Made by a program: the position numbers and the translations under genes
The notes under the pieces: generated by a model
The model's database searches: none
What the model saw: only the letters and a program-made list of their open reading frames with translations
Told to the model about the DNA's origin: nothing
NCBI GenBank assembly: GCA_017861315.1
Contig: JAGFXP010000004.1
Location: forward strand, 10,329-74,328
Length of the DNA stretch: 64,000 bases
Reading direction: 5' to 3'
Origin: Bacillota bacterium
GTDB lineage: Bacteria; Bacillota; Clostridia; Clostridiales; Clostridiaceae
Shown here: piece by piece, positions 12,697 through 24,855 of the stretch
Numbering within the stretch: the first letter of the stretch is position 1
Layout of the letters: each line of letters starts with the position of its first letter

Positions 12697-13125
12697 TCAA
12701 TTTTCTTTTTTCTTGCATTTCCCGCACAATCCATAGAAATAAACCTGATTGGCAAGAACCTTGTAATCCGTATACTGCTTGATCTCGTCGTTAAGATTAG
12801 AGAAGCAAACATTGTGGATGTCGTCAACCTTCCCGCAGGACAGGCACTGTATGTGAGGGTGTGCGCAGATATTGCCGTCATACCTGAAATTCCCTTCGCC
12901 CACATTGATTTCCTGTACAAGGCCAACCTCTACAAGGGTTTTAAGTGCCTTGTACACAGTTGCAAGGCTCATTGTAGGGTAAAGATCCTGAAGCGATTTA
13001 TATATGGTCTCCGCAGATGGATGTTCTGTAGTGCATTTCAAGTAATTGTATACCGCTATACGCTGAGGTGTGAGTTTCAATTTTTTTTCTTTGAATATGT
13101 TGGTGAGATTGTCCATAAACACCAT
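12697..13125 (-). CDS. Fur family transcriptional regulator (Fur/PerR/Zur subclass not resolvable by eye)
   Basis: Winged helix TPQRIAV, HPHIQCLSCGKV and C-terminal CGKCKKK CxxC pairs. The in-frame ATG at 13116 has a better AGGA SD and may be the real start. Confidence 0.85.
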   Translation of the reverse strand: MVFMDNLTNIFKEKKLKLTPQRIAVYNYLKCTTEHPSAETIYKSLQDLYPTMSLATVYKALKTLVEVGLVQEINVGEGNFRYDGNICAHPHIQCLSCGKVDDIHNVCFSNLNDEIKQYTDYKVLANQVYFYGLCGKCKKKEN

Positions 13126-13224: not shown

Positions 13225-13242
13225 TTGTTATAATATAAACAA
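13225..13242. promoter_or_regulatory. candidate Rex (redox-sensing repressor) operator overlapping an extended -10 box
   Basis: TTGTTATAATATAAACAA matches the clostridial Rex consensus TTGTTAA-N4-TTAACAA at 12/14 specified positions. It sits inside a 7+7 inverted repeat CTTTGTT...AACAAAG. TGtTATAAT is at 13226-13234. Confidence 0.45.
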
Positions 13243-13298: not shown

Positions 13299-13655
13299 AT
13301 GAAAGTAAGAGAAATTAATGAGCTTCTGAACACGGGACCGGTTATATGTTGTGACGATGACATGGAATTTGACATAAAATTTGGATTTGCGTCTGACCTG
13401 ATGAGCGACGTGCTTGCCCTCGCAAACCATGATGTGGTGCTTATCACGGGACTCACCAACATCCAGACAATCAGGACTGCTGAAATGAAGGACATAAAAT
13501 GGATTATTTTTGTCAGGGGAAAGGTGCCGGATGACATAACTGTGGAACTTGCAAAAGAAAACGGTATCAACATCCTTTGCACAAAGGAAACAATGTTCAG
13601 AACGTGCGGAATACTATTCGATCACGGCCTGCGGGGAGCTGAAATAAACAGATGA
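13299..13655 (+). CDS. DRTGG domain-containing protein
   Basis: 118 aa with a VVLITGLTN..QTIRTA pattern typical of DRTGG domains. It is the first gene of the hydrogenase-associated regulatory operon. Confidence 0.8.
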   Translation: MKVREINELLNTGPVICCDDDMEFDIKFGFASDLMSDVLALANHDVVLITGLTNIQTIRTAEMKDIKWIIFVRGKVPDDITVELAKENGINILCTKETMFRTCGILFDHGLRGAEINR

Positions 13656-14080
13656 GTAACGAAATATTAAAACTTCACTACGATATTGCAACCGGTGATT
13701 ACCTTAAAGCAGGAGAAGCGTCAAGCAACATTAAGAAAGCGCTTATGCAGCTCGGAGTTGACAATAAAATAATAAGAAGAGTTTGCGTTGCCAGTTATGA
13801 GGCGGAAATAAATATCGTCATCCACAGTTTGGGCGGATACATGGATATGAACATTTATGAAGACAGGATAGAAATCGTTGCAGCAGATGTCGGCCCCGGG
13901 ATAAGCGATGTGGCGCTTGCCATGACGGTAGGCTATTCAACAGCTACCCAGGGGGCAAGAGAGATGGGCTTCGGCGCCGGCATGGGGCTCCCTAATATCA
14001 AGAACAACTGCGACGAGCTTACTGTGGATTCATCTGCAGGCGGAAGCACGACAATCACTATGAAAATATATTTTAAATAA
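13652..14080 (+). CDS. anti-sigma-factor-like serine kinase / GHKL ATPase (HATPase_c only, 142 aa)
   Basis: ATGA overlap. G1 DVGPGI and G2 GFGAGMGLPN. Size and architecture resemble RsbW/SpoIIAB. Confidence 0.8.
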   Translation: MSNEILKLHYDIATGDYLKAGEASSNIKKALMQLGVDNKIIRRVCVASYEAEINIVIHSLGGYMDMNIYEDRIEIVAADVGPGISDVALAMTVGYSTATQGAREMGFGAGMGLPNIKNNCDELTVDSSAGGSTTITMKIYFK

Positions 14081-14094
14081 GGTTGTGGTAATAT

Positions 14095-15345
14095 ATGACT
14101 AAGCTATTTCATTCGGTAAAACTTATAGAAGATAAGTGCAAGGGATGTAGCAAATGTATGAACAATTGCCCAATGGAGGCAGTCAGGATAAAAAACTCCA
14201 AGGCATTTGTGATAGAGGATAAATGCATAGACTGCGGAGAATGCATTAAGGTATGCCCGTATAACGCACACGACATAGACAGAGACTACCTGGAGGACAT
14301 CCAGAAATACAAAATCAAGGTGGCTGTGCCATCGACAACGCTTTATGCTCAGTTCGGAGAGTATGTCGATCCCGGCATAATACATGCGGCTCTCCTGAAG
14401 CTTGGCTTCGATGAAGTTTACGAACAGACATATGCCTGCGATATCGTGGCGGAGATAACAAAAAAAGAAATCGAAAATACAAAAAAGCCGGCTATATCCT
14501 TGGTATGCCCAAGCATAGCAAGGCTTATAAGCATCAACTATCCTAGTCTTATAGAGAACACCATTAAGGTGCTGACACCTATAGAGGTTGCGGCGAGCCT
14601 GATACGCGAGAAGTATGAGAAAGCCGGGTACAAATATGAGGATGTAGGAATATTTTTCCTCACCCCGTGCGCTGTCTGGCTCACCTCGCTGAAGCAGTCA
14701 CCCACAAAACAGAACCCTGATATAAACGGCATCATAGCTATAAAGGACATCTATTCGAAACTGCTGAAAGAGATCAAGAGCGGCGAGATCGAGAAGCTCG
14801 ATGTTAGCAGCATGTCCTTTACAGGGCTTTCGGTCGTTGTACCTGGAGGACTCTGCAAGAGCATAAACTCAAGCAACTATATAACCGTTGACGGTGTTAA
14901 AAATGTAATCAAGGTGCTGGATGAGGTTGAAAGCGGAAAGCTCCAGGATGTGGAACTAATAGAGCCCTTCGCCTGCAGCGGAGGATGCCTCGGAGGATCA
15001 TTCCTGGTCGAGAATCCTTATAACGCCAGGAGGCTTCTCGACAAATGCATAAAGGATACAAACTTCACGTACAGCTTTGATGAGCTGAGCGACTACTATA
15101 TGCAGCAGTTTGTGGAGAATGTCAGAAACATAAAGTTCTCAAATCAGAAGCTGGCAGAGGATTTCGTCAGCGCTGTCAAAAAGATGAAATACATGAATGA
15201 ACTTGTAAACACGCTGCCCGGTACTGACTGCGGACAGTGCGGTTCTCCTTCCTGCAAGGCCTTTGCGGAGGATGTGGTTAGGGGACTTGCTCACATAGAA
15301 GATTGCAAATACATTAATTTGGGAGGCGACGTCAATGAAGGTTAA
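14095..15345 (+). CDS. [FeFe]-hydrogenase-like putative sensory protein (divergent H-domain, group D/M2e-like) with 2x[4Fe-4S] ferredoxin N-terminus and C-terminal RnfB-type Fe-S domain
   Basis: CKGCSKCMNNCP and CIDCGECIKVCP. H-domain positions read SLVCPSI / LTPCAVWL / FACSGGCLGGS. C-terminal CGQCGSPSCKAF. Confidence 0.8.
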   Translation: MTKLFHSVKLIEDKCKGCSKCMNNCPMEAVRIKNSKAFVIEDKCIDCGECIKVCPYNAHDIDRDYLEDIQKYKIKVAVPSTTLYAQFGEYVDPGIIHAALLKLGFDEVYEQTYACDIVAEITKKEIENTKKPAISLVCPSIARLISINYPSLIENTIKVLTPIEVAASLIREKYEKAGYKYEDVGIFFLTPCAVWLTSLKQSPTKQNPDINGIIAIKDIYSKLLKEIKSGEIEKLDVSSMSFTGLSVVVPGGLCKSINSSNYITVDGVKNVIKVLDEVESGKLQDVELIEPFACSGGCLGGSFLVENPYNARRLLDKCIKDTNFTYSFDELSDYYMQQFVENVRNIKFSNQKLAEDFVSAVKKMKYMNELVNTLPGTDCGQCGSPSCKAFAEDVVRGLAHIEDCKYINLGGDVNEG

Positions 15346-15664
15346 GGATCTGGCTGATAAACTTGGTATGAAAATTTTGACCGGGGAGGAAGGCCTGGAA
15401 AAAGAAATTGAGGGAGGATATACAGGCGACCTGCTGAGCTGGGTAATGTCCCATGCGTCAAAGGGTGACGTATGGATTACTGTCCAGATACATCCAAACA
15501 TAATAGCTGTTGCCGTACTGCTGGAAATGGCAGCGATTATTGTGCCCGAAGATATTCCTGTGGAAGCTTCCACCTTGGAGAAAGCAAACTCGGAAGGCAT
15601 TGCTGTTCTTCAGTCTCCTGATTCTGCGTTTGAACTGTGTGCCAAAATTAAGGCAGCAATGTAG
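15335..15664 (+). CDS. DRTGG domain-containing protein (second copy)
   Basis: 109 aa, 11-nt overlap with the upstream gene, GGGAGG RBS, same fold-type pattern as 13299-13655. Confidence 0.7.
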   Translation: MKVKDLADKLGMKILTGEEGLEKEIEGGYTGDLLSWVMSHASKGDVWITVQIHPNIIAVAVLLEMAAIIVPEDIPVEASTLEKANSEGIAVLQSPDSAFELCAKIKAAM

Positions 15665-15668
15665 AATT

Positions 15669-16376
15669 ATGAAGATTTATACTGATTTTCATATACACAC
15701 CGCATTATCTCCCTGCGGAGATGCGGATATGACCCCGAATAACATTGTGAATATGGCAATCATAAAAGGGTTGGACGCAATTGCGATAACTGACCATAAC
15801 AGCGTTGAAAACGCGGCGACATGCATGGAGGTCGGGAAAGAGAACGGACTCCTAGTCATTCCCGGCATGGAGCTTCAGACAAGGGAGGAAGTGCATGTTG
15901 TGTGCCTCTTCCCTGATATTGAAGCGGCGCTGGCTTTTCAGGAGTATGTTTACTCCAAACTGCCACCTTTGAAAAACAATGAGAAATTGTTTGGAGAGCA
16001 GCTTGTCTTTGATAAGGATGACGAGATCGTAGGTCATAACGACAGGCTGCTTTTGTCGTCCTCAGATATGACACTTCGTGATGCATTTAACAAAGTAAAT
16101 GAATTAAAAGGTGCATTTATCCCCGCCCATATCGACAGGGAAGCATATGGAATCATCAACGCTCTCGGATTCGTTCCAGACGATCTGCCGATTTCGACTC
16201 TGGAGTATAAAAATGAGGAAGGCCTGAAAAAGCTTGTAAACAGCGGGATTGTACCAAAACGCTACAATTTCATCCGGTCGTCTGATGCCCACTACCTTCA
16301 GGACATCTCGGAGCGCCAAAATGAAATGGAAGTAGATGAATTAAATTCTCTCAATATCATCAATAAATTAAAATAA
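15669..16376 (+). CDS. PHP (polymerase/histidinol phosphatase) domain phosphoesterase
   Basis: MKIYTDFHIHTALSPCGD and AITDHNS metal-binding motifs. The ORF-track start at 15510 overlaps the previous gene, so ATG 15669 was chosen. Confidence 0.85.
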   Translation: MKIYTDFHIHTALSPCGDADMTPNNIVNMAIIKGLDAIAITDHNSVENAATCMEVGKENGLLVIPGMELQTREEVHVVCLFPDIEAALAFQEYVYSKLPPLKNNEKLFGEQLVFDKDDEIVGHNDRLLLSSSDMTLRDAFNKVNELKGAFIPAHIDREAYGIINALGFVPDDLPISTLEYKNEEGLKKLVNSGIVPKRYNFIRSSDAHYLQDISERQNEMEVDELNSLNIINKLK

Positions 16377-16543: not shown

Positions 16544-17041
16544 GTGAGTAACGAAAAGAATTGCTGCTGTGGATGCAGTCAGGAAGACCCAAGACTAGCT
16601 GAGCTTATGGAAACAATCGACAAGAACAGAGAAACAAAGGGAGCATTAATCCCGGTTCTGCATAAAGTGCAGACATTGTACGGATACCTGCCAGAGGATG
16701 TTCTTCAGGTAGTATCGGAAGAACTAGACGTTCCAATGACAGAGATATACGGTGTTGCTTCTTTCTATTCAATTTTCTCACTTGAACCAAAGGGAGAGCA
16801 CATAATAAGAGTATGCCTCGGAACAGCTTGCTACGTAAAAGGTGCGCAGCTGCTCATCGACGAAATCAGCAAGGATCTGAAAATCGAAGTTGGCCAGACT
16901 ACACCAGATGGAAAATTCACTTTGGAAGCCTGCAGATGCCTCGGAGCATGCGGATTGGCTCCGGTATTGACAGTAGGTGAAAAGGTTTACGGAAGACTCG
17001 TTCCTGAATCAATCCCAGGAATATTAGCAGAATACAAATAA
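16544..17041 (+). CDS. NuoE-like [2Fe-2S] subunit of NAD(P)H-dependent [FeFe] hydrogenase
   Basis: GTG start after AAGGAAGAG. Thioredoxin-like 2Fe-2S motif CLGTAC...CRCLGACGLAP. Confidence 0.9.
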   Translation: MSNEKNCCCGCSQEDPRLAELMETIDKNRETKGALIPVLHKVQTLYGYLPEDVLQVVSEELDVPMTEIYGVASFYSIFSLEPKGEHIIRVCLGTACYVKGAQLLIDEISKDLKIEVGQTTPDGKFTLEACRCLGACGLAPVLTVGEKVYGRLVPESIPGILAEYK

Positions 17042-17053
17042 GGATGTAAAATT

Positions 17054-17602
17054 ATGAGAGAGCTTTCTCTGCATTTGATAGATATAATACAAAACTCGGT
17101 GGTTGCTGGTGCAACTTTGATAGAAATCGAATTGGATGCAAACACGATTGAAAACTACCTGAAGATCACAATAAAGGATAATGGATGCGGAATGGATGAG
17201 GAGACCTTGAAAAAGGTCAAAGACCCTTTTGTAACATCGCGCAAAACCAGAAAGGTTGGACTCGGGCTTTCGCTGTTTGAAGCTGCATGCCAAAGATGCG
17301 ACGGCTATCTGGAAATCTCTTCGGAGAAAGGGAACGGCACGACTGTCACAGCCTTTATGAAATTCAACCATATTGACAGGAGTCCGGTCGGCAATATTGT
17401 GGATACAATTGTAAGTTCTCTGTTAAATGAAAATACAGACATAGTGTACAGGCATATATTTAACGGGGAGAGTTTTGAATTCGACAGCAGAGAAATCAAG
17501 AAGATAGTAGGCGATGACCTGAGCGATCCGGAGATATTGTGCTGGACCAAAGAGTACATTGCCGAGAACATTGAAAATATAGATGGAGGTGCCATTAAAT
17601 GA
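17054..17602 (+). CDS. GHKL/histidine-kinase-like ATPase (no DHp or sensor domain)
   Basis: N-box HLIDIIQNSVVAG, G1 DNGCGM, G2 GLGLSL. Embedded between hydrogenase subunit genes. Confidence 0.8.
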   Translation: MRELSLHLIDIIQNSVVAGATLIEIELDANTIENYLKITIKDNGCGMDEETLKKVKDPFVTSRKTRKVGLGLSLFEAACQRCDGYLEISSEKGNGTTVTAFMKFNHIDRSPVGNIVDTIVSSLLNENTDIVYRHIFNGESFEFDSREIKKIVGDDLSDPEILCWTKEYIAENIENIDGGAIK

Positions 17603-18000
17603 AATCATTAGCTGAATTAGAAGCAATCAGAAAGAAAACCATAGATAATGTGAACCAGAGAACAGACAGAACAACTACAAGAATAGTTGTCGGTATGGCT
17701 ACTTGCGGAATAGCAGCAGGAGCAAGACCTGTTCTTCTTGCAATACTTGACGAAGTCAAAAAGCTTGGCTTAGGGGATGTATCAGTAGTACAGACCGGAT
17801 GCATAGGCGTTTGCAGGCTTGAGCCGATCGTTGAGGTCATAAGACCAGGCGAAGAAAAAGTAACTTACATCAAGATGGATGCTGAAAAAGCAAAGAAAGT
17901 AGTTGACGAGCATGTTGCCGGCGGAAAAGTGTGCGACGAATACGTTATGCACATAGTAGACGGACACGTTGTAAATGACTACACAGTAAAACATGATTAA
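17599..18000 (+). CDS. thioredoxin-like (2Fe-2S) ferredoxin subunit
   Basis: ATGA overlap. Cysteines at MATCGIAAG and GCIGVCRLEP. Confidence 0.85.
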   Translation: MKSLAELEAIRKKTIDNVNQRTDRTTTRIVVGMATCGIAAGARPVLLAILDEVKKLGLGDVSVVQTGCIGVCRLEPIVEVIRPGEEKVTYIKMDAEKAKKVVDEHVAGGKVCDEYVMHIVDGHVVNDYTVKHD

Positions 18001-18038
18001 TACAAATTCGATAAATGTGATTGATTGGAGGAAGTAAG

Positions 18039-19832
18039 ATGGAATTTTACCGTTCACAAGTGCTGGTATGCGGAGGAACAGGATGTACTTCATCTGGTTC
18101 AAATGATATATGTGCTGCACTGAAAAGCGAGTTGGCAGCAAAAGGCTTAGACAAAGAGGTTGAAGTTGTAAAGACAGGATGTTTCGGTCTTTGCGAATTA
18201 GGTCCGATAGTAATAGTTTACCCGGAAGGAGCGTTCTACAGCCAGGTTAAGGTTGAGGATGTTACTGAACTGGTTGAAGAACACCTGTTAAAGGGAAGAA
18301 TAGTAAAGAGACTGGTTTACCATGATGCGATAGAGGATGACAAGATAAAGTCATTGAACAAGGTTGGCTTCTATGCTAAACAGGAAAGAATAGCCCTCAA
18401 AAACTGCGGAGTTATAGATCCTGAAAACATAGATGAATACCTTGCATTCGACGGATACAAGGCGTTGGAAAAAGCATTGACTCAGATGACACCGCTTGAT
18501 GTTATCAACGAAATGAAGAAGTCAGGCTTAAGAGGCAGAGGCGGCGGCGGCTTCCCTACAGGACTCAAATGGGAATTCGCTTACAAGCAGAACAACCCTC
18601 AGAAGTATATAATCTGCAACGCTGACGAAGGAGACCCGGGTGCATTCATGGACCGTTCGGTTCTTGAGGGAGACCCTCACTCAGTGCTGGAAGCTATGGC
18701 TATAGGCGGATACGCCATAGGCGCAAACATGGGCTTCATCTACGTAAGAGCTGAGTACCCAATAGCTGTTAAGAGGCTTGAAGTAGCAATAGACCAGGCT
18801 AGAGAATACGGACTGCTTGGAAAGAATATATTCGAAACCGGATTCGACTTTGACGTCGAAATCAGACTCGGTGCTGGCGCGTTCGTTTGCGGAGAAGAGA
18901 CTGCACTGATCCACTCAATAGAGGGACACAGAGGTATGCCTACTCCAAAACCGCCGTTCCCTGCTGTAAGCGGATTATGGGGAAAACCAACTGTTATAAA
19001 CAACGTTGAAACTTATGCGAACATCCCTCAGATAATCAACAAAGGTGCTGACTGGTTTGCAAGCATAGGAACCGAGAAGAGCAAGGGAACAAAAGTATTT
19101 GCCCTTGGCGGAAAAATCACTAACACTGGTCTCGTAGAGATCCCTATGGGAACTACTCTTAGAGAAGTTATATACGAAATGGGCGGCGGTATCCCTAACA
19201 ACAAGAAGTTCAAGGCTGTTCAGACAGGCGGACCTTCAGGCGGATGCATAACTGCTGAATCCCTTGATACTCCTATCGAGTACGATACTCTTGTAGCGCT
19301 CGGATCAATGATGGGTTCCGGCGGTATGATCGTCATGGACGAAGACAACTGTATGGTTGACGTTGCAAGGTTCTTCCTTGACTTCACAAGAGAAGAGTCC
19401 TGCGGAAAATGTACTCCTTGCAGAGTCGGCACAAAGAGAATGCTTGAAATGCTTGAAAAAATCACTGAAGGAAAAGCTACGCTTGAAGACCTCGACAAGC
19501 TTGAGAAGCTTGCTCTGTCAATCAAGACTTCAGCTCTCTGCGGACTTGGACAGACAGCTCCAAACCCAGTGCTTTCAACTTTGAAATACTTCAGAGACGA
19601 ATACGAAGCTCACGTTGTTGACAAGAAATGTCCGTCAGGAGTATGTAAGGCATTGCTGCAGTACACAATTGTTGATGATGTATGCAAGAAATGCGGTCTC
19701 TGCGTTAAGGCTTGTCCTGTAGGAGCTATATCAGGAAAAGTTAAGGAGCAGTTCATAATCGACCAGGATAAGTGCGTAAAATGCGGAGCTTGTATGGAAA
19801 AATGCCCATTCAAAGCGATAGTCAAGAAATAA
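18039..19832 (+). CDS. NuoF-like NAD(P)H-binding FMN/Fe-S subunit of [FeFe] hydrogenase
   Basis: ATG 18039 follows GGAGGAAG (the ORF is open from 18021). N-terminal 2Fe-2S domain, GRGGGGFPTG FMN/NADH motifs, ESCGKCTPCR, and two C-terminal 4Fe-4S motifs. Confidence 0.93.
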   Translation: MEFYRSQVLVCGGTGCTSSGSNDICAALKSELAAKGLDKEVEVVKTGCFGLCELGPIVIVYPEGAFYSQVKVEDVTELVEEHLLKGRIVKRLVYHDAIEDDKIKSLNKVGFYAKQERIALKNCGVIDPENIDEYLAFDGYKALEKALTQMTPLDVINEMKKSGLRGRGGGGFPTGLKWEFAYKQNNPQKYIICNADEGDPGAFMDRSVLEGDPHSVLEAMAIGGYAIGANMGFIYVRAEYPIAVKRLEVAIDQAREYGLLGKNIFETGFDFDVEIRLGAGAFVCGEETALIHSIEGHRGMPTPKPPFPAVSGLWGKPTVINNVETYANIPQIINKGADWFASIGTEKSKGTKVFALGGKITNTGLVEIPMGTTLREVIYEMGGGIPNNKKFKAVQTGGPSGGCITAESLDTPIEYDTLVALGSMMGSGGMIVMDEDNCMVDVARFFLDFTREESCGKCTPCRVGTKRMLEMLEKITEGKATLEDLDKLEKLALSIKTSALCGLGQTAPNPVLSTLKYFRDEYEAHVVDKKCPSGVCKALLQYTIVDDVCKKCGLCVKACPVGAISGKVKEQFIIDQDKCVKCGACMEKCPFKAIVKK

Positions 19833-19854
19833 CTTTTGTCAAGGAGTGAATTAA

Positions 19855-21591
19855 ATGGAAATGGTTAAATTAACTATAGATGGCCAGCTGGTTGAAGTTC
19901 CAAAAGGAACCACTGTGCTTGAAGCTGCAAGACTGACAGGAATAGAAATTCCTAGCCTTTGTTATATGAAAGACGTAAACCACCCTGCAAGCTGCAGAGT
20001 ATGCGTAGTGGAAGTTGGACCAAGACTTATTGCTTCCTGCACACTAGTAGCAGAAGAAGGAATGAACGTAAAAACTAATACACCTAAGGTAAGAGAAGCA
20101 AGAAAGATGTCAGTTGAACTTCTTCTCTCAAACCACAAAAGGGAATGTACTTCATGTTTGAGAAGTGAAAACTGCGAGCTCCAGACTGTATCAAAGGACC
20201 TAGGAATAAGGGAACTTAGCTATGAAGGCGACAAGACTGAAGCTGTCTGCGACGATTCTTCATGGTCAATAGTCAGGGATCCTGAAAAATGCATACTCTG
20301 CGGAAGATGCATAAGCACATGCTCAGACATACAGACAGTACACGCTATCGGCTGGGCAGGCAGAGGCTTTGAAACAAGAGTTGCACCTGCTTTCGACAGA
20401 AGTCTCGGAGATTCAGTTTGCATAAACTGCGGTCAGTGTATAATGAACTGCCCAGTTGGAGCACTGCATGAAAGAGAAAACGTTCAGGACGTTTGGGATG
20501 CGCTGAATGACCCGGACAAATTCGTTATAATCCAGACAGCTCCAGCTATCAGAGTTGCAATAGGCGAAGAATTCGGAATGCCTATCGGAACAAGCTCAAC
20601 AGGAAAAATGGTTGCTGCTATGAGAAAATTAGGCTTCTACAAAGTGTTTGATACAGACTTTGCTGCTGACCTGACAATCATGGAAGAAGGAACAGAATTC
20701 CTCGGCAGACTGAAAACTGGCGAAAACCTTCCTATAATGACATCATGCTGCCCAGGCTGGATTAAATTCGTAGAGCAGTTCTACCCTGAAATGATAGACA
20801 ATCTTTCAACATGCAAATCACCTCACGAAATGGAAGGCGCTTTGATAAAAGCGTACTACCGTGACAAGTTCGGCCTCGATCCTGAAAAGATTGTAGTAGT
20901 TTCAGTAATGCCTTGTACTGCAAAGAAATTCTCGGTCAAGAGAGAAATGATGAACGTCAACGGCATCGAAGATGTAGATATAGTTCTCACTACAAGAGAA
21001 TTGGCAAGATTGATCAAAGAAGCTGGAATTGACTACATGAACCTTAAGGATGAGGATTTTGACAATCCATTCGGAGAATCAACAGGTGCTGCTGTAATAT
21101 TCGGAGCTACAGGCGGAGTTGCAGAAGCTGCTGTCAGAACAGTACTCGATATCGTTACAGGAAAAGACCTTCAGGATGTTGATCTGACACAGCTCAGAGG
21201 TACTGAAGGAATAAAAGAAGCATCACTTACTTTGCCTGACGGAACAGTATTGAATGTTGCTATAGCAAACGGATTGGGAAATGCAAGGAAAGTTCTCGAT
21301 GCTCAGAAGAGCGGCGAGAAAAACTACCACTTCATAGAAGTAATGGCATGCCCAGGCGGATGCGTAACTGGAGGCGGACAGCCGATAATCGATGCTAAGC
21401 AGCAGGAGAAGTGCGACGTTAGAGCGATGAGGGCAAAGGCTGCTTACGGCGAAGATGCAGGTAAGGCAATAAGGAAATCACACCAGAACCCGTATATCAC
21501 TAAGATATATGAAGAGTACCTTGGAGAGCCAAACGGACACAAGAGCCACGAGCTTCTCCACACTCACTACGTAAAGAGAAGCAAATTCTAA
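19855..21591 (+). CDS. hydA: catalytic [FeFe] hydrogenase, M3 architecture, group A3 (bifurcating-type) by context
   Basis: All three H-cluster signatures are present: TSCCPGW, MPCTAKK, EVMACPGGCVTGGGQP. N-terminal 2Fe-2S, His-ligated 4Fe-4S and 2x4Fe-4S domains. Confidence 0.95.
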   Translation: MEMVKLTIDGQLVEVPKGTTVLEAARLTGIEIPSLCYMKDVNHPASCRVCVVEVGPRLIASCTLVAEEGMNVKTNTPKVREARKMSVELLLSNHKRECTSCLRSENCELQTVSKDLGIRELSYEGDKTEAVCDDSSWSIVRDPEKCILCGRCISTCSDIQTVHAIGWAGRGFETRVAPAFDRSLGDSVCINCGQCIMNCPVGALHERENVQDVWDALNDPDKFVIIQTAPAIRVAIGEEFGMPIGTSSTGKMVAAMRKLGFYKVFDTDFAADLTIMEEGTEFLGRLKTGENLPIMTSCCPGWIKFVEQFYPEMIDNLSTCKSPHEMEGALIKAYYRDKFGLDPEKIVVVSVMPCTAKKFSVKREMMNVNGIEDVDIVLTTRELARLIKEAGIDYMNLKDEDFDNPFGESTGAAVIFGATGGVAEAAVRTVLDIVTGKDLQDVDLTQLRGTEGIKEASLTLPDGTVLNVAIANGLGNARKVLDAQKSGEKNYHFIEVMACPGGCVTGGGQPIIDAKQQEKCDVRAMRAKAAYGEDAGKAIRKSHQNPYITKIYEEYLGEPNGHKSHELLHTHYVKRSKF

Positions 21592-21603: not shown

Positions 21604-21637
21604 AAGGACTGCAATTCAATTGCAGTCCTTTTTTTAT
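21604..21637 (+). terminator. rho-independent terminator after hydA; the T-run overlaps the stop codon of the convergent PP2C gene
   Basis: AAGGACTGCAA-TTCAA-TTGCAGTCCTT followed by TTTTTTTA. Confidence 0.7.
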
Positions 21638-22806
21638 ACAAAATTCAGATTCACTTTTTTGCCGAGACTCTCAATCAGTTCTTTGAGTTCAAGCAGCTTG
21701 TTCAGTTTGATGCTAAGGTCGAGGGGGAAGTCCGGGTTCTGGTGAGCGGGGTTCACGGCTTTGCCAACCCAGAGGTTGAGATGGCTGCATTCGCATATAA
21801 GCATCTTTGCAAGCAGAGATGCCCCGTCGTGTCCGAAAGCCATCCCGTCGTTAAAGAGGTTTTCTATGGGCTTAGAGTACTCCTTAATCTTCTCCAGAGC
21901 CATGCTGAGGGTCAGCACGCCTTCGGTAATGAGGTCGATTCCCTCCATTGTTGCAGTCGGAGGGACCTTTTTGTCAGCAAAGTCCATGTTGACATTCAGA
22001 GCCCTGTTCAGTTCCCTGGAAGCAATGTTTGCAGCGGTGCCTCCGCAGATTATTTTTTTGCCGTGGCCGCTCATGAATTTCATTACAGCTTCACTGTCGG
22101 CTTCGGGATCCTGAGGAGGACCTGAAAACAGGTCCATGTGCTTCTCTCTTTCGGCTTTAATGATGAGGGCTGTGGTGTCGTCGCCGGGACTGTTGCCGTC
22201 GAAGACCATGCAGACCCCGAGGAGCTCCCGGGCCATTTCCCTTGCCGTCTTGTCAGGGCTAGCCAGCTTCTGGAGATAGTCGTTTACTCCTTCCCATTTC
22301 CAGCCGAGGTTCAGGAAGTCGCCTAGACCCGCATGAGTAACTCCGTCGCTGACAATAGCGAAGACGTCGCCCTCCTCGAGGGTGAAGGAGCATTCGGAAA
22401 CGGTCTTTCCGTGGATGATAACGTCCTTTTTCGGGACTTCGCGGTGATTCCCGTTCCTTATGAGGAAGAAGGGCGGGTTGTCATATTCTGCCATGTACAC
22501 CTTGCCGCAGTCTTCTATTTTTATTATGGTGAAGGTTGAGTATGCCAGATCCCTGACCTTGCACACGGGAAGGGTCTTAACTATGGTGTCCACTGTTTCG
22601 TAGATATCCGAGCCTTCCTTCAGCATGGTTGCTGCAATCTTGGATGTCAGCGTGGCGAGGATGTTGGCCTTTACCCCGCTTCCGAGGCCGTCGGAGAGGA
22701 CGATTATGGTTGAGTCGGGAAGCCTTGACACCTCAACCATATCGCCGCAGAGCTCTTCACCTGATTTTATGAGGCTGTGGTGAAATACGTCGATATAAAC
22801 GCCCAT
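21634..22806 (-). CDS. SpoIIE/PP2C family serine phosphatase with an extra C-terminal domain
   Basis: PP2C motifs CGDMVEV and VLSDGLGSG. ATG 22806 lies 1 nt after the HydS stop (the ORF-track start at 22884 overlaps HydS). Confidence 0.85.
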   Translation of the reverse strand: MGVYIDVFHHSLIKSGEELCGDMVEVSRLPDSTIIVLSDGLGSGVKANILATLTSKIAATMLKEGSDIYETVDTIVKTLPVCKVRDLAYSTFTIIKIEDCGKVYMAEYDNPPFFLIRNGNHREVPKKDVIIHGKTVSECSFTLEEGDVFAIVSDGVTHAGLGDFLNLGWKWEGVNDYLQKLASPDKTAREMARELLGVCMVFDGNSPGDDTTALIIKAEREKHMDLFSGPPQDPEADSEAVMKFMSGHGKKIICGGTAANIASRELNRALNVNMDFADKKVPPTATMEGIDLITEGVLTLSMALEKIKEYSKPIENLFNDGMAFGHDGASLLAKMLICECSHLNLWVGKAVNPAHQNPDFPLDLSIKLNKLLELKELIESLGKKVNLNFV

Positions 22807-22807
22807 A

Positions 22808-24529
22808 TCAGTTGCCTTCTTCCTCTGCCTCGACAAGCCTCTTAAGCTTGGTAAGCAGCGTTTTGGTTTCTGCAGTCGTTTCACCGAGGAGGCTGGCTAT
22901 CTCGTGGGCAACGCGCATCTGCTTGTCAATTACCTCCTGGGTTGAAATAAGGGTTTTTTCCCTGAGTGTGTTATATTTCTTCCTTTCCTCTTCCCTGTCG
23001 GCTATGTTGACCATGGACACCATAAGCATATCCTGCTTTGCAAGATATACTATGCTCTGAATGAATATGAGGTTGTAGCTGGGATAAGCCACACGCCTGC
23101 CGATGATGCTTTCGCCTGTCCTCCTGACCTCCCTGAAGCACTCGTCATCCATTAGGGCCGCCACGGGAAGGCCCTTCATCTTTTCCGAATCAACGAGGAA
23201 GGCGTTCCTGCATGCCGGATTCATCTCGATGATGTTCATATCCCCGTCCAGAAGCAGTGTGCAGTTTGCGGTGTGCTCGAATATTACGTTCGTTATGCTT
23301 TCCGCTTTTGTCCTCATATGGTGAAGGCACATGTTTGGCTCCGCCATGCCCTCAAAGATGGCCTGGGCTTTTTCTCTGCAGGTGTTGTAACCGCAGACGC
23401 CGCAGTTCAGCTCGTCCTCTTCGCCGTGTTTCCCCATGTTGCTTAATATGACCTTTATATCGTGCTCGTAGGCCATGGGATGCCTGAAGCTCTTGTCGCA
23501 GAAGGTTCTTTCAAGATTCAGGCTGCCGGCTGGATTTTCAGATCCTGCAGGGCGTATGGATTTCCTGGATTCCAGGTATTGTTTAACCTTGCCCTGCCTT
23601 TTATAGTAGCTGTGCTCGTTCCTCACCATGTCAGGCCCGCCTGTGCAGCTTCCCTTGCAGGAGCTTGCCTCCACGAAGATGTTTCCTATGTCGCCGTTGC
23701 TTATGCTGGTGAACAGGTCCGTGCATTCGTCTGACCCGCTGACAGTGATGATCCGGAGACCCTGCTTGTGTATGTCCTCGCCCATGCACTCTATAATGCC
23801 TCCGAACTCCGGAAAGCTGCGTCCCCTTCCTGCGGTATTCCTGTCAAAGGCTGAAGCGCCAGTGGACAACGGGTCGAGTCCGCTATCCTGAATCCACTGC
23901 TGGATCTCGTCGAAATTCAAGACCGCATCGATCGCCCCGTCGTTGAAAAAGCTTACGTTTTCGGTTTTCTTGGCCATGCATGGTCCTATGAAGACCGAAT
24001 AGCAGTCCTCGCCGTAGAATTGCTTGATCAATTTCCCGTGCGCTATCATAGGAGAGACTGCCGGTATCAGATATTCTGTCAGGGTCGGGTAGTATTTCTC
24101 AACAAGATAGTTTACTGACGGGCAGGCGGTTGTTATATAGATGCCCTGGGACGTATTCTTCACATAATCCATATAGAAATCCGAGACGACCTCTGCGCCT
24201 ACAGCTGTCTCCTCTACAAAGGAAAAACCAAGATTCTTAAGGACGCCCGGAAATTTCCCAGGTTCGAAGTCGAAATACCCTGCAAAGGAAGGAGCGATGC
24301 TGGCGACAACCTTCCTTCCTGTAATGACGGCATTTTTCACGTCGGGCAGGTAGCTTACAACGTTGCGGGCGTTTTGGGGGCATACGAGCAGGCAGTGGGA
24401 GCATGCTATGCACCTGTCCTCGATTATCTCAGCCTGGTCGTTCTTGAATTTTATAGCCTTAACGGGGCAGGATCTGAGGCATTTGTAGCAGCTCTTGCAG
24501 TTGGCTGCTGAGAAATTCATTATGTTCAT
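22808..24529 (-). CDS. sensory [FeFe]-hydrogenase HydS-like protein (group C): 2x4Fe-4S, modified H-domain, extra 4-Cys cluster, PAS domain
   Basis: CKSCYKCLRSCP and CIACSHCLLVCP. H-domain positions read TTACPSV / GPCMAKKTE / SSCKGSCTGGP. CGVCGYNTC...C is followed by a PAS-like segment. Confidence 0.88.
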   Translation of the reverse strand: MNIMNFSAANCKSCYKCLRSCPVKAIKFKNDQAEIIEDRCIACSHCLLVCPQNARNVVSYLPDVKNAVITGRKVVASIAPSFAGYFDFEPGKFPGVLKNLGFSFVEETAVGAEVVSDFYMDYVKNTSQGIYITTACPSVNYLVEKYYPTLTEYLIPAVSPMIAHGKLIKQFYGEDCYSVFIGPCMAKKTENVSFFNDGAIDAVLNFDEIQQWIQDSGLDPLSTGASAFDRNTAGRGRSFPEFGGIIECMGEDIHKQGLRIITVSGSDECTDLFTSISNGDIGNIFVEASSCKGSCTGGPDMVRNEHSYYKRQGKVKQYLESRKSIRPAGSENPAGSLNLERTFCDKSFRHPMAYEHDIKVILSNMGKHGEEDELNCGVCGYNTCREKAQAIFEGMAEPNMCLHHMRTKAESITNVIFEHTANCTLLLDGDMNIIEMNPACRNAFLVDSEKMKGLPVAALMDDECFREVRRTGESIIGRRVAYPSYNLIFIQSIVYLAKQDMLMVSMVNIADREEERKKYNTLREKTLISTQEVIDKQMRVAHEIASLLGETTAETKTLLTKLKRLVEAEEEGN

Positions 24530-24532
24530 TTT

Positions 24533-24775
24533 CTATTCTCCTAAGACATATTTTTTGAAAAAAGCTTCGGCGCAGTCCGGGATTACCGACATGACTTCGC
24601 TTTCATCAACCCTGACGGATACTCCTTTGCTGCACTTTCCAAGGCAATAGGAGCCTTTCAAGGTTACGGAATCTGTAACTGAATTGGCATCTATAAGTTT
24701 CTGAAATATATCGATTATATCATATGCGCCTTTGAGATGGCATGCGCTGCCGACACAGACTGTTATGGTAGTCAT
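24533..24775 (-). CDS. small thioredoxin-like (2Fe-2S) ferredoxin
   Basis: ATG 24775 follows AGGAGG. Cysteine pattern CVGSAC...CLGKC. It is the first gene of the 2Fe2S-HydS-PP2C operon. Confidence 0.75.
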   Translation of the reverse strand: MTTITVCVGSACHLKGAYDIIDIFQKLIDANSVTDSVTLKGSYCLGKCSKGVSVRVDESEVMSVIPDCAEAFFKKYVLGE

Positions 24776-24837
24776 AATATTACCTCCTGTAATTGTTGGG
24801 AAAATAACATTGAACACAATTTCATTTTACACCTATA

Positions 24838-24855
24838 ATGTTAAAAAATAAACAA
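24838..24855. promoter_or_regulatory. weaker candidate Rex operator between the HydS operon and pilD
   Basis: ATGTTAAAAAATAAACAA matches TTGTTAA-N4-TTAACAA at 12/14, but it is low-complexity A/T sequence. Confidence 0.3.

Follow-up and report, generated by a model that had tools for sequence, protein, structure and literature searches.

A group D HydS subclade with tryptophan or arginine at the H-cluster lysine site, embedded in a conserved gene cassette

The subject of this study is a 416-residue hydrogenase-like protein encoded in a 64,000-nucleotide stretch of DNA from a Bacillota bacterium of the family Clostridiaceae (GenBank assembly GCA_017861315.1, contig JAGFXP010000004.1, positions 10,329 to 74,328 of the forward strand); the whole stretch is called the window, and coordinates below are those of the window. 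The protein is a member of a known family, the HydS-type group D (M2e) [FeFe]-hydrogenases, and it belongs to a previously unremarked subclade that lacks the lysine found at position 358 of the hydrogenase CpI. This lysine is common to all characterized [FeFe]-hydrogenases, although it is no stated criterion of group D. Its site is occupied by tryptophan (W195) in the 416-residue protein and by tryptophan or arginine in its closest relatives, hence called the W/R clade, and no mention of a Lys-to-Trp clade was found in the searchable literature. The explanation that we prefer, while giving it no better than an even chance, is that group D HydS is the Fe-S input of a conserved signaling cassette (DRTGG protein, RsbW-like ATPase, HydS, DRTGG protein, PHP protein), here a redox sensor with an occluded pocket.

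Assignment of the protein to the group D HydS family

Group D, or M2e, HydS was defined by Land et al. in 2020 as a protein with two N-terminal [4Fe-4S] motifs, an H-domain and a C-terminal Cx2Cx4Cx16C motif, without a PAS domain, and with no cysteine at position 299 of CpI, no group A proton-pathway residues and Ser or Thr in place of Met353; its gene lies 5' of a trimeric bifurcating hydrogenase, beside a histidine-kinase-like ATPase (PMC8163306). The only characterized enzyme of the group is TamHydS of Thermoanaerobacter mathranii (PMC8163306, PMC10407848, PMC11803613, PMC13104023). Taken one by one, these features were all found in the 416-residue protein, the parts of which are as follows.

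14095..15345, + strand: HydS-type (group D / M2e) [FeFe]-hydrogenase homologue, W/R subclade (open reading frame, Pfam, more than 2583 homologues, AlphaFold2, dN/dS)
14119..14274, + strand: F-domain with two Cx2Cx2Cx3C [4Fe-4S] motifs (C15/18/21/25 and C44/47/50/54); Fer4 family matches at residues 9-60
14320..14997, + strand: H-domain, Pfam Fe_hyd_lg_C, residues 76-301 (93 bits against a cut-off of 22.1)
14497..14517, + strand: L1 motif SLVCPSI, residues 135-141; V137 at the CpI C299 site, C138 an H-cluster ligand
14659..14688, + strand: L2 motif LTPCAVWLTS, residues 189-198; T190 at the M353 site, C192 a ligand, W195 at the K358 site, S198 at the E361 site
14842..14853, + strand: PGGL, with P250 and L253 in place of S249 and E252 of the proposed TamHydS proton pathway (alignment to TamHydS GWANSGGEAFG)
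14959..15003, + strand: L3 motif IEPFACSGGCLGGSF, residues 289-303; E290 (E289 of TamHydS), F292 (M497 site), ligands C294 and C298
15229..15306, + strand: C-terminal Cx2Cx4Cx16C [4Fe-4S] motif CGQCGSPSCKAFAEDVVRGLAHIEDC, residues 379-404; C379, C382, C387 and C404

Translation confirmed the open reading frame, which has an ATG start, as well as each motif string quoted in the first-pass annotation of this DNA. The two ferredoxin motifs, CKGCSKCMNNC (residues 15-25, nucleotides 14137-14169) and CIDCGECIKVC (residues 44-54, nucleotides 14224-14256), lie within the span of the Fer4 dicluster models of Pfam (residues 9-60), and the Fe_hyd_lg_C match (PF02906, E 3e-26) covers profile positions 4-244 of 245. 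The codon of W195 is TGG, at 14677-14679. A four-cysteine domain of the RnfB type had been proposed for the C terminus, and it was indeed recovered by Pfam as PF04060 'FeS' at residues 374-406 (E 7.7e-15), by alignment of residues 44-76 of the RnfB chain 9eri_B with residues 373-405, and by NCBIfam RnfB matches. The similarity of this C-terminal stretch of 33 residues to the N-terminal Fe-S domain of RnfB runs from end to end; unlike in RnfB, the domain stands at the C terminus of a hydrogenase-like protein, with no membrane anchor and no Rnf genes. No PAS domain was found in the protein by Pfam, and only 12 residues follow the last cysteine, C404.

None of the curated NCBIfam hydrogenase models reached its cut-off (79 against 406 for group A, 119 against 450 for group B), and the group A signatures TSCCPxW, MPCxxKxxE and ExMxCxxGCxxGGGQP are replaced by SLVCPSI, LTPCAVWLTS and EPFACSGGCLGGSF. 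The AlphaFold2 model, built from 121 sequences, nonetheless had a mean predicted local distance difference score (pLDDT) of 89.1 and a predicted template-modeling score (pTM) of 0.88, and its best Foldseek matches were the [FeFe]-hydrogenases DdHydAB, CbA5H and CpI (TM 0.64-0.71, probability 1.00).

The absence of the group A proton pathway was judged at three sites, where C299 is V137, E279 is Ile and R286 falls in a gap; E282 and S319 were not separately assessed, the E282 site aligning with a Lys and a Glu standing one position on. The M353 site is T190, and it is Thr or Ser in nearly all W/R clade members. The C-terminal PAS domain that marks group C (M2f) is lacking, whereas the group C paralogue in the window (573 residues) has a PAS_4 match. 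Homologues of Thermobrachium celere and Caloramator australicus are included in a published list of 70 group D sequences (PMC13104023, Table S6), and the T. celere protein falls in the W/R clade. Loss of C299, loss of the group A pathway and the RnfB-like C-terminal cluster are norms of the family; the first-pass annotation had missed this published architecture, and its interpretation as a whole was only partly supported.

In particular, its description of an unusually stripped-down H-domain did not survive comparison within group D, where the H-domain of the protein is ordinary in size. From residue 58 to the last H-cluster cysteine there are 241 residues in the W/R clade and 242 in canonical group D, a further 80 residues lead on to the C-terminal cluster in both, and the Pfam span of the H-domain equals that of the group C paralogue in the window. 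The protein continues for about 358 residues after the second ferredoxin motif, not the roughly 300 first given. Only in comparison with group A, which has a 39-residue insert and an Fe_hyd_SSU tail, is the H-domain compact. What is shorter is the C-terminal tail, with 12 residues after C404 where the canonical group D median is 33.5, the W/R clade as a whole being about 21 residues shorter here. Pfam scores for the H-domain were 84-98 bits in the W/R clade and 110-133 bits in canonical group D, compared with 172 and 335 bits for the group C paralogue and the HydA of the same genome.

Residues around the H-cluster in the W/R clade

The 416-residue protein was aligned with the 120 best of more than 2583 database homologues, and the resulting 121 sequences split sharply into 72 members of the W/R clade (407-423 residues, 46-92% identical to the 416-residue protein) and 49 canonical group D sequences (430-449 residues, about 40% identical). 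The W/R set is monophyletic (stem length 0.59-0.65 substitutions per site, support 99-100), and in the tree it is nested within a group D radiation that holds AKE-type sequences. The clade is part of a somewhat broader lineage, itself within that radiation, where the E252 site has already become Gln and the 358 site is K, R, N, H or Q. The equivalents of the CpI ligands C300, C355, C499 and C503 (C138, C192, C294 and C298) are invariant in the 121 sequences, the eight F-domain cysteines are invariant or nearly so, and all 16 cluster cysteines are conserved.

Around these cysteines, the two sets differ at one site after another. The K358 site is Lys in the 49 canonical rows, whereas in the W/R clade it is Trp in 57 and Arg in 15 of the 72 members; Leu, Ser, Gly and Cys, each one mutation from TGG, never occur. 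Ala at the C299 site gives way to Phe, Leu, Val, Ile or Met (V137 here), and Met at the site of CpI Q325 to Ile or Val (I163 here). The S249 site of TamHydS is Ser in the canonical set and variable in the W/R clade (P250 here). The E252 site is Glu in the canonical set and Gln in 33 of the 72 W/R members, and it is L, I, M, V, A or T throughout the 24-member subclade that includes the 416-residue protein (L253 here). The D265 and E289 sites are Asp and Glu, respectively, in both sets (D266 and E290 here). Conservation beside the ligand cysteines is looser in the W/R clade; the residue equivalent to G296, between C294 and C298, is Gly in 100% of canonical sequences but Glu or Asn in about half of the clade. 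The Arg codons of the clade are AGG and AGA, which fit the path AAR to AGR to TGG, the one way of getting from Lys to Trp in two steps without passing through a stop codon.

These assignments were checked directly against TamHydS by tblastn, using the coding sequence given in the supplement of PMC13104023, which is damaged by optical character recognition and readable piecewise. TamHydS VISSACPAV was matched by ISLVCPSI, FFISPCAAKVTSVK by FFLTPCAVWLTSLK, GWANSGGEAFG by VVVPGGLCKSI, and FFEGLA by LIEPFA. The pairings of V137 with C299, of W195 with the Lys and of S198 with the Glu are gap-free both against canonical group D and against the HydA of the window. A misalignment of W195 with K358, suggested by a two-residue gap in the phmmer alignment to CbA5H, was rejected, as the family, HydA and TamHydS alignments are all gap-free from the Cys to position +3. 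The early observations that Val replaces the proton-relay Cys and that the Lys and Glu of MPCxxKxxE are gone were therefore correct. So was the view that the second sphere differs from those of catalytic group A enzymes and group C sensors, the group C paralogue of the same genome keeping GPCMAKKTEN; it differs from that of TamHydS as well.

TamHydS and the 416-residue protein, at about 35-40% identity, share the domain order, the two N-terminal [4Fe-4S] motifs, the 241/242-residue H-domain, and even the numbering of the C-terminal region (D378, C379, E392, D393, D403 and C404, and also C382 and C387). Both lack a cysteine at the C299 site, have a hydroxyl residue at the M353 site and keep the E289 and D265 sites. 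However, A137, the Lys of SPCAAKVTS, S249 and E252 of TamHydS correspond to V137, W195, P250 and L253, its L291 to Phe, and its Met at the Q325 site to Ile. For TamHydS, protons have been proposed to travel by a different route, E252 to E289 to S249 to D265, which was reported to be highly conserved, and the TamHydS variants E252V and E252D had less than 0.01% of H2 oxidation while keeping 10-20% of H2 evolution (PMC10407848). This path is not intact in the 416-residue protein: with Leu for E252 and Pro for S249, two of its members, the first included, are gone, and E290 and D266 are kept.

Among the other characterized groups, group C (M2f: TmHydS, Ruminococcus albus HydS, T. saccharolyticum HfsB and the paralogue in the window) has in common with the protein the F-domain, the compact H-domain, the Cx2Cx4Cx16C motif, the loss of the C299 cysteine and the linkage to phospho-signaling genes and a group A hydrogenase. 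It differs in its C-terminal PAS domain, in Gly at the M353 site and in keeping Lys358 and Glu361, and it pairs with a SpoIIE/PP2C phosphatase, whereas the W-type HydS pairs with a DRTGG/PHP set. Group A (CpI, DdHydAB, CbA5H and the HydA of HydABC) has the same H-domain fold and the same four H-cluster cysteines; the protein lacks the group A Cys299 of TSCCPGW, the proton-pathway residues, Met353, Met497, Lys358 and Glu361, and also the 39-residue insert and small-subunit-like tail.

Residue volume at the pocket positions

To estimate how full the pocket is, standard residue volumes were summed at nine homology-assigned positions (78, 80, 137, 163, 190, 195, 250, 253 and 292). The sum was 1349 cubic angstroms for the 416-residue protein and 1222-1424 (median 1370) for the W/R clade, against 1083-1209 (median 1158) for canonical group D, 1189 for the group A HydA of the window and 1103 for its group C HydS. 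The clade thus has a surplus of about 190-210 cubic angstroms over the groups assumed to bind [2Fe], with no overlap, and by a rough estimate this is a large share of the space needed by the 17-heavy-atom di-iron unit. A general tendency of lineages without the lysine to have fuller pockets was considered but found unsupported (median 1050 against 1021, p = 0.14, 138 representatives); the gain is specific to the W/R clade.

Variation across the wider family

A HMMER scan of 1.84 billion representatives gave 307 matches with E up to 1e-30, among which the whole W/R clade is a single 50%-identity cluster. Family-wide counts were made on 138 full-length representatives of such clusters of M2e-like proteins (set P0121-P0269). 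The H-cluster cysteines are present in 136-138 and the C-terminal cysteines in 133-137 of them. The K358 site is K in 93, R in 15, Q in 9 and N in 5, followed by L, M and H (4 each) and Y, C, E and I (one each), and E252 is Glu in 97. The full signature of K, E252 and E289 was found in 68, and the TamHydS-type A-K-E triplet in 36 of the 138, which suggests that only about half of the 50%-identity clusters of the family carry the full TamHydS signature. Representatives without the Lys tended weakly to be without E252 as well (odds ratio 2.7, p = 0.01, uncorrected for phylogeny). The second sphere of TamHydS is therefore not representative of the family; K358 and E252 look conserved in published logos because the W/R clade makes up about 3% of a sample of about 70 sequences. 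One representative of 4122 residues (P0160) matched the 416-residue query in 14 separate stretches, and may be either a giant protein of repeated hydrogenase-like modules or an artefact of assembly or gene calling.

Selection and distribution

The gene is under strong purifying selection, with dN/dS of 0.017-0.03 within the genus at dS near saturation. Among 289 sampled genomes of the order, the W/R type was carried by 4/4 genomes of the source genus, by members of two further genera of the same family and by about 17 genomes of a neighboring family, the named members of which appear to include Caloramator and Thermobrachium. Named carriers of the type are Thermobrachium celere, several Caloramator species, Clostridium tepidiprofundi and Fervidicella.

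Two W-type orthologues from the neighboring family (L109 and L114, in genomes G014 and G046) are broken, L109 being a pseudogene by one frameshift and L114 heavily decayed into three reading frames with 14 in-frame stops by genome search. The group C HydS is still present in one of these two genomes.

The source genome has six H-domain genes, namely two of group A, two of group B, one of group C and the W-type gene; the other five all retain PCxxK, and no canonical group D gene is among the six. HydF and HydE homologues are present, and the HydG match is weak or partial in this fragmented 104-contig assembly.

The five-gene cassette and the HydABC operon

The gene of the 416-residue protein is the third of five co-oriented genes, which are followed by a bifurcating hydrogenase operon.

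13299..13655, + strand: DRTGG-domain protein 1 (Pfam DRTGG 20.1 bits, below cut-off)
13652..14080, + strand: RsbW/SpoIIAB-like GHKL ATPase, candidate Ser kinase (HATPase_c_2 28.7 bits; TIGR01925 spIIAB E 4e-12, below cut-off)
15335..15664, + strand: DRTGG-domain protein 2, the start of which overlaps the HydS stop by 11 nucleotides
15669..16376, + strand: PHP-domain phosphoesterase (PF02811, E 2.7e-11)
16544..21591, + strand: HydABC-type bifurcating operon with NuoE-like, GHKL ATPase, 2Fe-2S ferredoxin, NuoF-like and group A6 HydA genes

Against NF040763 (cut-off 765), the HydA scored 897.8 bits. The four genes that flank HydS in the cassette, DRTGG protein 1 included, were all present in 22/22 W/R loci that reached far enough. 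For canonical group D, the statistics refer to loci among the matches listed in a genome-contig scan; here the flanking genes were found in 68-73 of 74-77 loci, DRTGG protein 1 in 71/74, and hydABC directly 3' in about 40%. A Thermoanaerobacteraceae locus with a close TamHydS orthologue (L086) has the identical ten-gene order, cassette and then HydABC. In the window and its genus, the cassette is likewise co-oriented with hydABC and immediately 5' of it. No mention of DRTGG together with a hydrogenase was found in the literature searched.

The T. celere locus (L087, HF952018.1) is arranged differently. There, the cassette lies 3' of genes for HydA, a TM1266-like protein, hydE, hydG, hydF, a chemoreceptor and two small genes, for an EAL fragment and a methyltransferase, and no hydABC was found within the 9 kb flank downstream of it. 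The operon in the window also contains a stand-alone GHKL ATPase of 182 residues (17054-17602, + strand, HATPase_c E 1.2e-17), between the NuoE-like and 2Fe-2S genes; such an ATPase was found in 23/57 of the listed canonical loci with enough flank.

Possible roles of the W/R-type protein

The first-pass annotation had raised the concern that a hydrogenase-like protein without C299 may contain no [2Fe] subcluster. For the type member this has been answered, as TamHydS spontaneously takes up synthetic [2Fe]adt and forms the H-cluster (PMC8163306). Because TamHydS does so and turns over H2, albeit slowly (irreversible-type H2/H+ interconversion, tolerant of CO and about 1000-fold slower than in group A enzymes), loss of Cys299 alone is no argument for a [4Fe-4S]-only protein. 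As for the lysine, Lys228 of CrHydA1 holds the distal cyanide at the end of the positively charged maturation channel, of which it is the final residue, and mutations that disturb it gave variants defective in cofactor incorporation (PMC9516953); a review conveys the same message for the cationic residue beside the distal CN, named there an arginine (PMC11376134). The 416-residue protein is without this Lys anchor, its Glu361 partner, and the one protonatable group D residue within reach of the amine bridgehead. The CrHydA1 lysine is, we take it, the equivalent of K358 in CpI, and the experiment behind the statement of the review was reportedly the K358N exchange in CpI, by Knoerzer et al. in 2012.

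Since the Lys is replaced by Trp and the pocket is bulkier, a [4Fe-4S]-only state or the sensing of something other than H2 becomes more plausible for the W/R subclade. Having neither a protonatable relay residue nor the Lys anchor, the protein should not carry out TamHydS-like H2 turnover, and it probably does not handle H2 as TamHydS does. We consider the case for an occluded, [2Fe]-less pocket evenly balanced and lean slightly toward it, a retained [2Fe] site having a somewhat smaller chance.

In the preferred explanation, the cassette standing in front of HydABC would presumably control that electron-bifurcating hydrogenase. The [2Fe] cavity of HydS would be largely filled by the extra side chains, and the protein, with four [4Fe-4S] clusters, would report reductant pressure, i.e., the redox state linked to ferredoxin and H2; a redox-linked conformational change might then be transmitted to its cassette partners, the ATPase and the DRTGG and PHP proteins. 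The proposal can be extended to the whole W/R clade, such that with the loss of the Lys and the E252 relay and the filling of the di-iron cavity, its members would have become [4Fe-4S]-only and Nar1-like, and control would have switched from H2 to reductant state; this we rate a little short of an even chance. Eukaryotic Nar1 / NARFL (IOP1) is a hydrogenase-derived scaffold that has kept the cubane cysteines and has no [2Fe] subcluster. It differs from the present protein in lineage and architecture, serving in cytosolic Fe-S protein assembly with no signaling cassette.

Several observations weigh against the occluded-pocket sensor. The E252 site has kept Glu in nine W/R members, and P231, S232, P324, the GG of xGGx and the Thr/Ser at the M353 site are conserved in the clade. 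The pocket-filling case consists of residue volumes at homology-assigned positions, not a measured cavity. Trp and Arg, the only residues tolerated at the K358 site, are both hydrogen-bond donors and could hold the distal cyanide. In TamHydS, the published type member, H2 leaves the C-terminal cluster unreduced, and no signaling partner is known for the enzyme. The sensor role of all group D proteins is deduced from context, the roles of the cassette partners are putative assignments from weak domain matches, and a sequence search of the PDB with the RsbW-like ATPase and DRTGG protein 2 returned no solved homologue.

Some of these same observations would be explained by a true H-cluster, in which Trp195, or Arg in part of the clade, hydrogen-bonds the distal cyanide, and an aprotic pocket of V137, L253 and P250 traps the H2-reduced state, making the protein a non-turnover sensor of H2 or CO. 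Such a protein could well retain W or R in 72/72 clade members and avoid all one-step mutants of TGG, and the AGG/AGA codons are consistent with a path from K through R to W. The conserved P231, S232, P324, GG, M353-site hydroxyl and E290 are likewise in its favor, as are the HydF and HydE homologues of the source genome, the strong purifying selection, and the precedent of TamHydS, a group D scaffold that loads [2Fe] spontaneously without C299. Against it stand the block of cofactor incorporation when the equivalent Lys is disturbed in group A (PMC9516953, PMC11376134), the 190-210 cubic angstroms of surplus at the pocket positions without overlap with [2Fe]-binding groups, and the relaxed conservation beside the ligand cysteines, such as at G296. 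On balance, we regard a Trp-anchored H-cluster as a serious contender that nevertheless falls clearly below an even chance.

An accessory, polyferredoxin-like electron-transfer subunit of HydABC, rather than a sensor, could also have four [4Fe-4S] sites as predicted, and be encoded directly 5' of hydABC in the same orientation, as in the window and the genus. However, the T. celere cassette has no hydABC in the 9 kb downstream, with HydA and hydEGF upstream instead; of the listed canonical loci, only some 40% have hydABC directly 3', while the genes for the kinase-like, DRTGG and PHP proteins almost always lie beside hydS; and a HydS-like chain was not noticed in the solved HydABC entries 7p5h, 8a6t and 7q4v, the full chain lists of which were not inspected. 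We therefore consider a subunit role improbable. Still less credit is given to the last two possibilities. The loss of key second-sphere residues and the two broken orthologues might suggest a decaying, functionless relic of a group D sensor, which is ruled out in practice by the dN/dS of 0.017-0.03 and the conserved cysteines (16/16), aside from the confident structure prediction and the presence of the clade, with an intact cassette, in at least two families. An active catalytic hydrogenase with an unrecognized proton pathway has a parallel in the alternative pathway of TamHydS, but it is very improbable, because the group A pathway is absent (E279 site Ile, C299 site Val, E282 site Lys, R286 gap), the first group D pathway residue, E252, is Leu, and even TamHydS works about 1000-fold below group A.

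Mechanistic thinking on group D rests on one enzyme, TamHydS, and on logos of about 70 sequences in which K358 and E252 seem invariant; the W/R clade, a selected and cassette-embedded lineage, breaks both rules. It thus offers a natural experiment on whether an H-cluster can be assembled without the Lys anchor, and the canonical and W-type sensors, with the same cassette and the same bifurcating hydrogenase, form a paired comparison for the signal that the cassette reads. The opposite of a [4Fe-4S]-only clade would be just as new to the field, namely an aprotic pocket in which hydrogen bonding between Trp and cyanide keeps an H-cluster in place.

Second sensor unit and other neighboring elements

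A second sensor unit lies on the opposite strand, convergent with hydABC.

21634..24817, - strand: 2Fe-2S thioredoxin-like protein (94 residues), group C HydS with PAS (22808-24529, 573 residues) and SpoIIE/PP2C phosphatase

The motifs of this group C HydS are TTACPSV, GPCMAKKTEN and Cx2Cx4Cx16C. A subfunctionalization that requires a co-resident group C HydS was considered for the W-type gene and found unsupported, a full-length group C orthologue being present in only 12/20 genomes that carry the W-type gene.

Divergent from the sensor cassette is a gene for a Fur-family regulator (12697-13125, - strand, PF01475 E 1.4e-27). The upstream regions of the two sensor operons contain Rex-box-like sequences, TTGTTATAATATAAACAA at 13225-13242 and ATGTTAAAAAATAAACAA at 24838-24855, with 2 mismatches each to TTGTKAAN4TTMACAA. 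There are 4 such matches in the window against 0.87 expected, and 4 were reached in 3/100 shuffles, so that the signal is weak. Finally, the group A6 HydA of the operon (19855-21591, + strand) has the motif MPCTAKKFS, with Ser at the site of CpI Glu361, the salt-bridge partner of Lys358. Ser was found at this site in the HydA of 4/4 genomes of the genus and in a paralogue in one of them, and Glu is kept in eight HydA copies of other genera and in one paralogue from the source genus.

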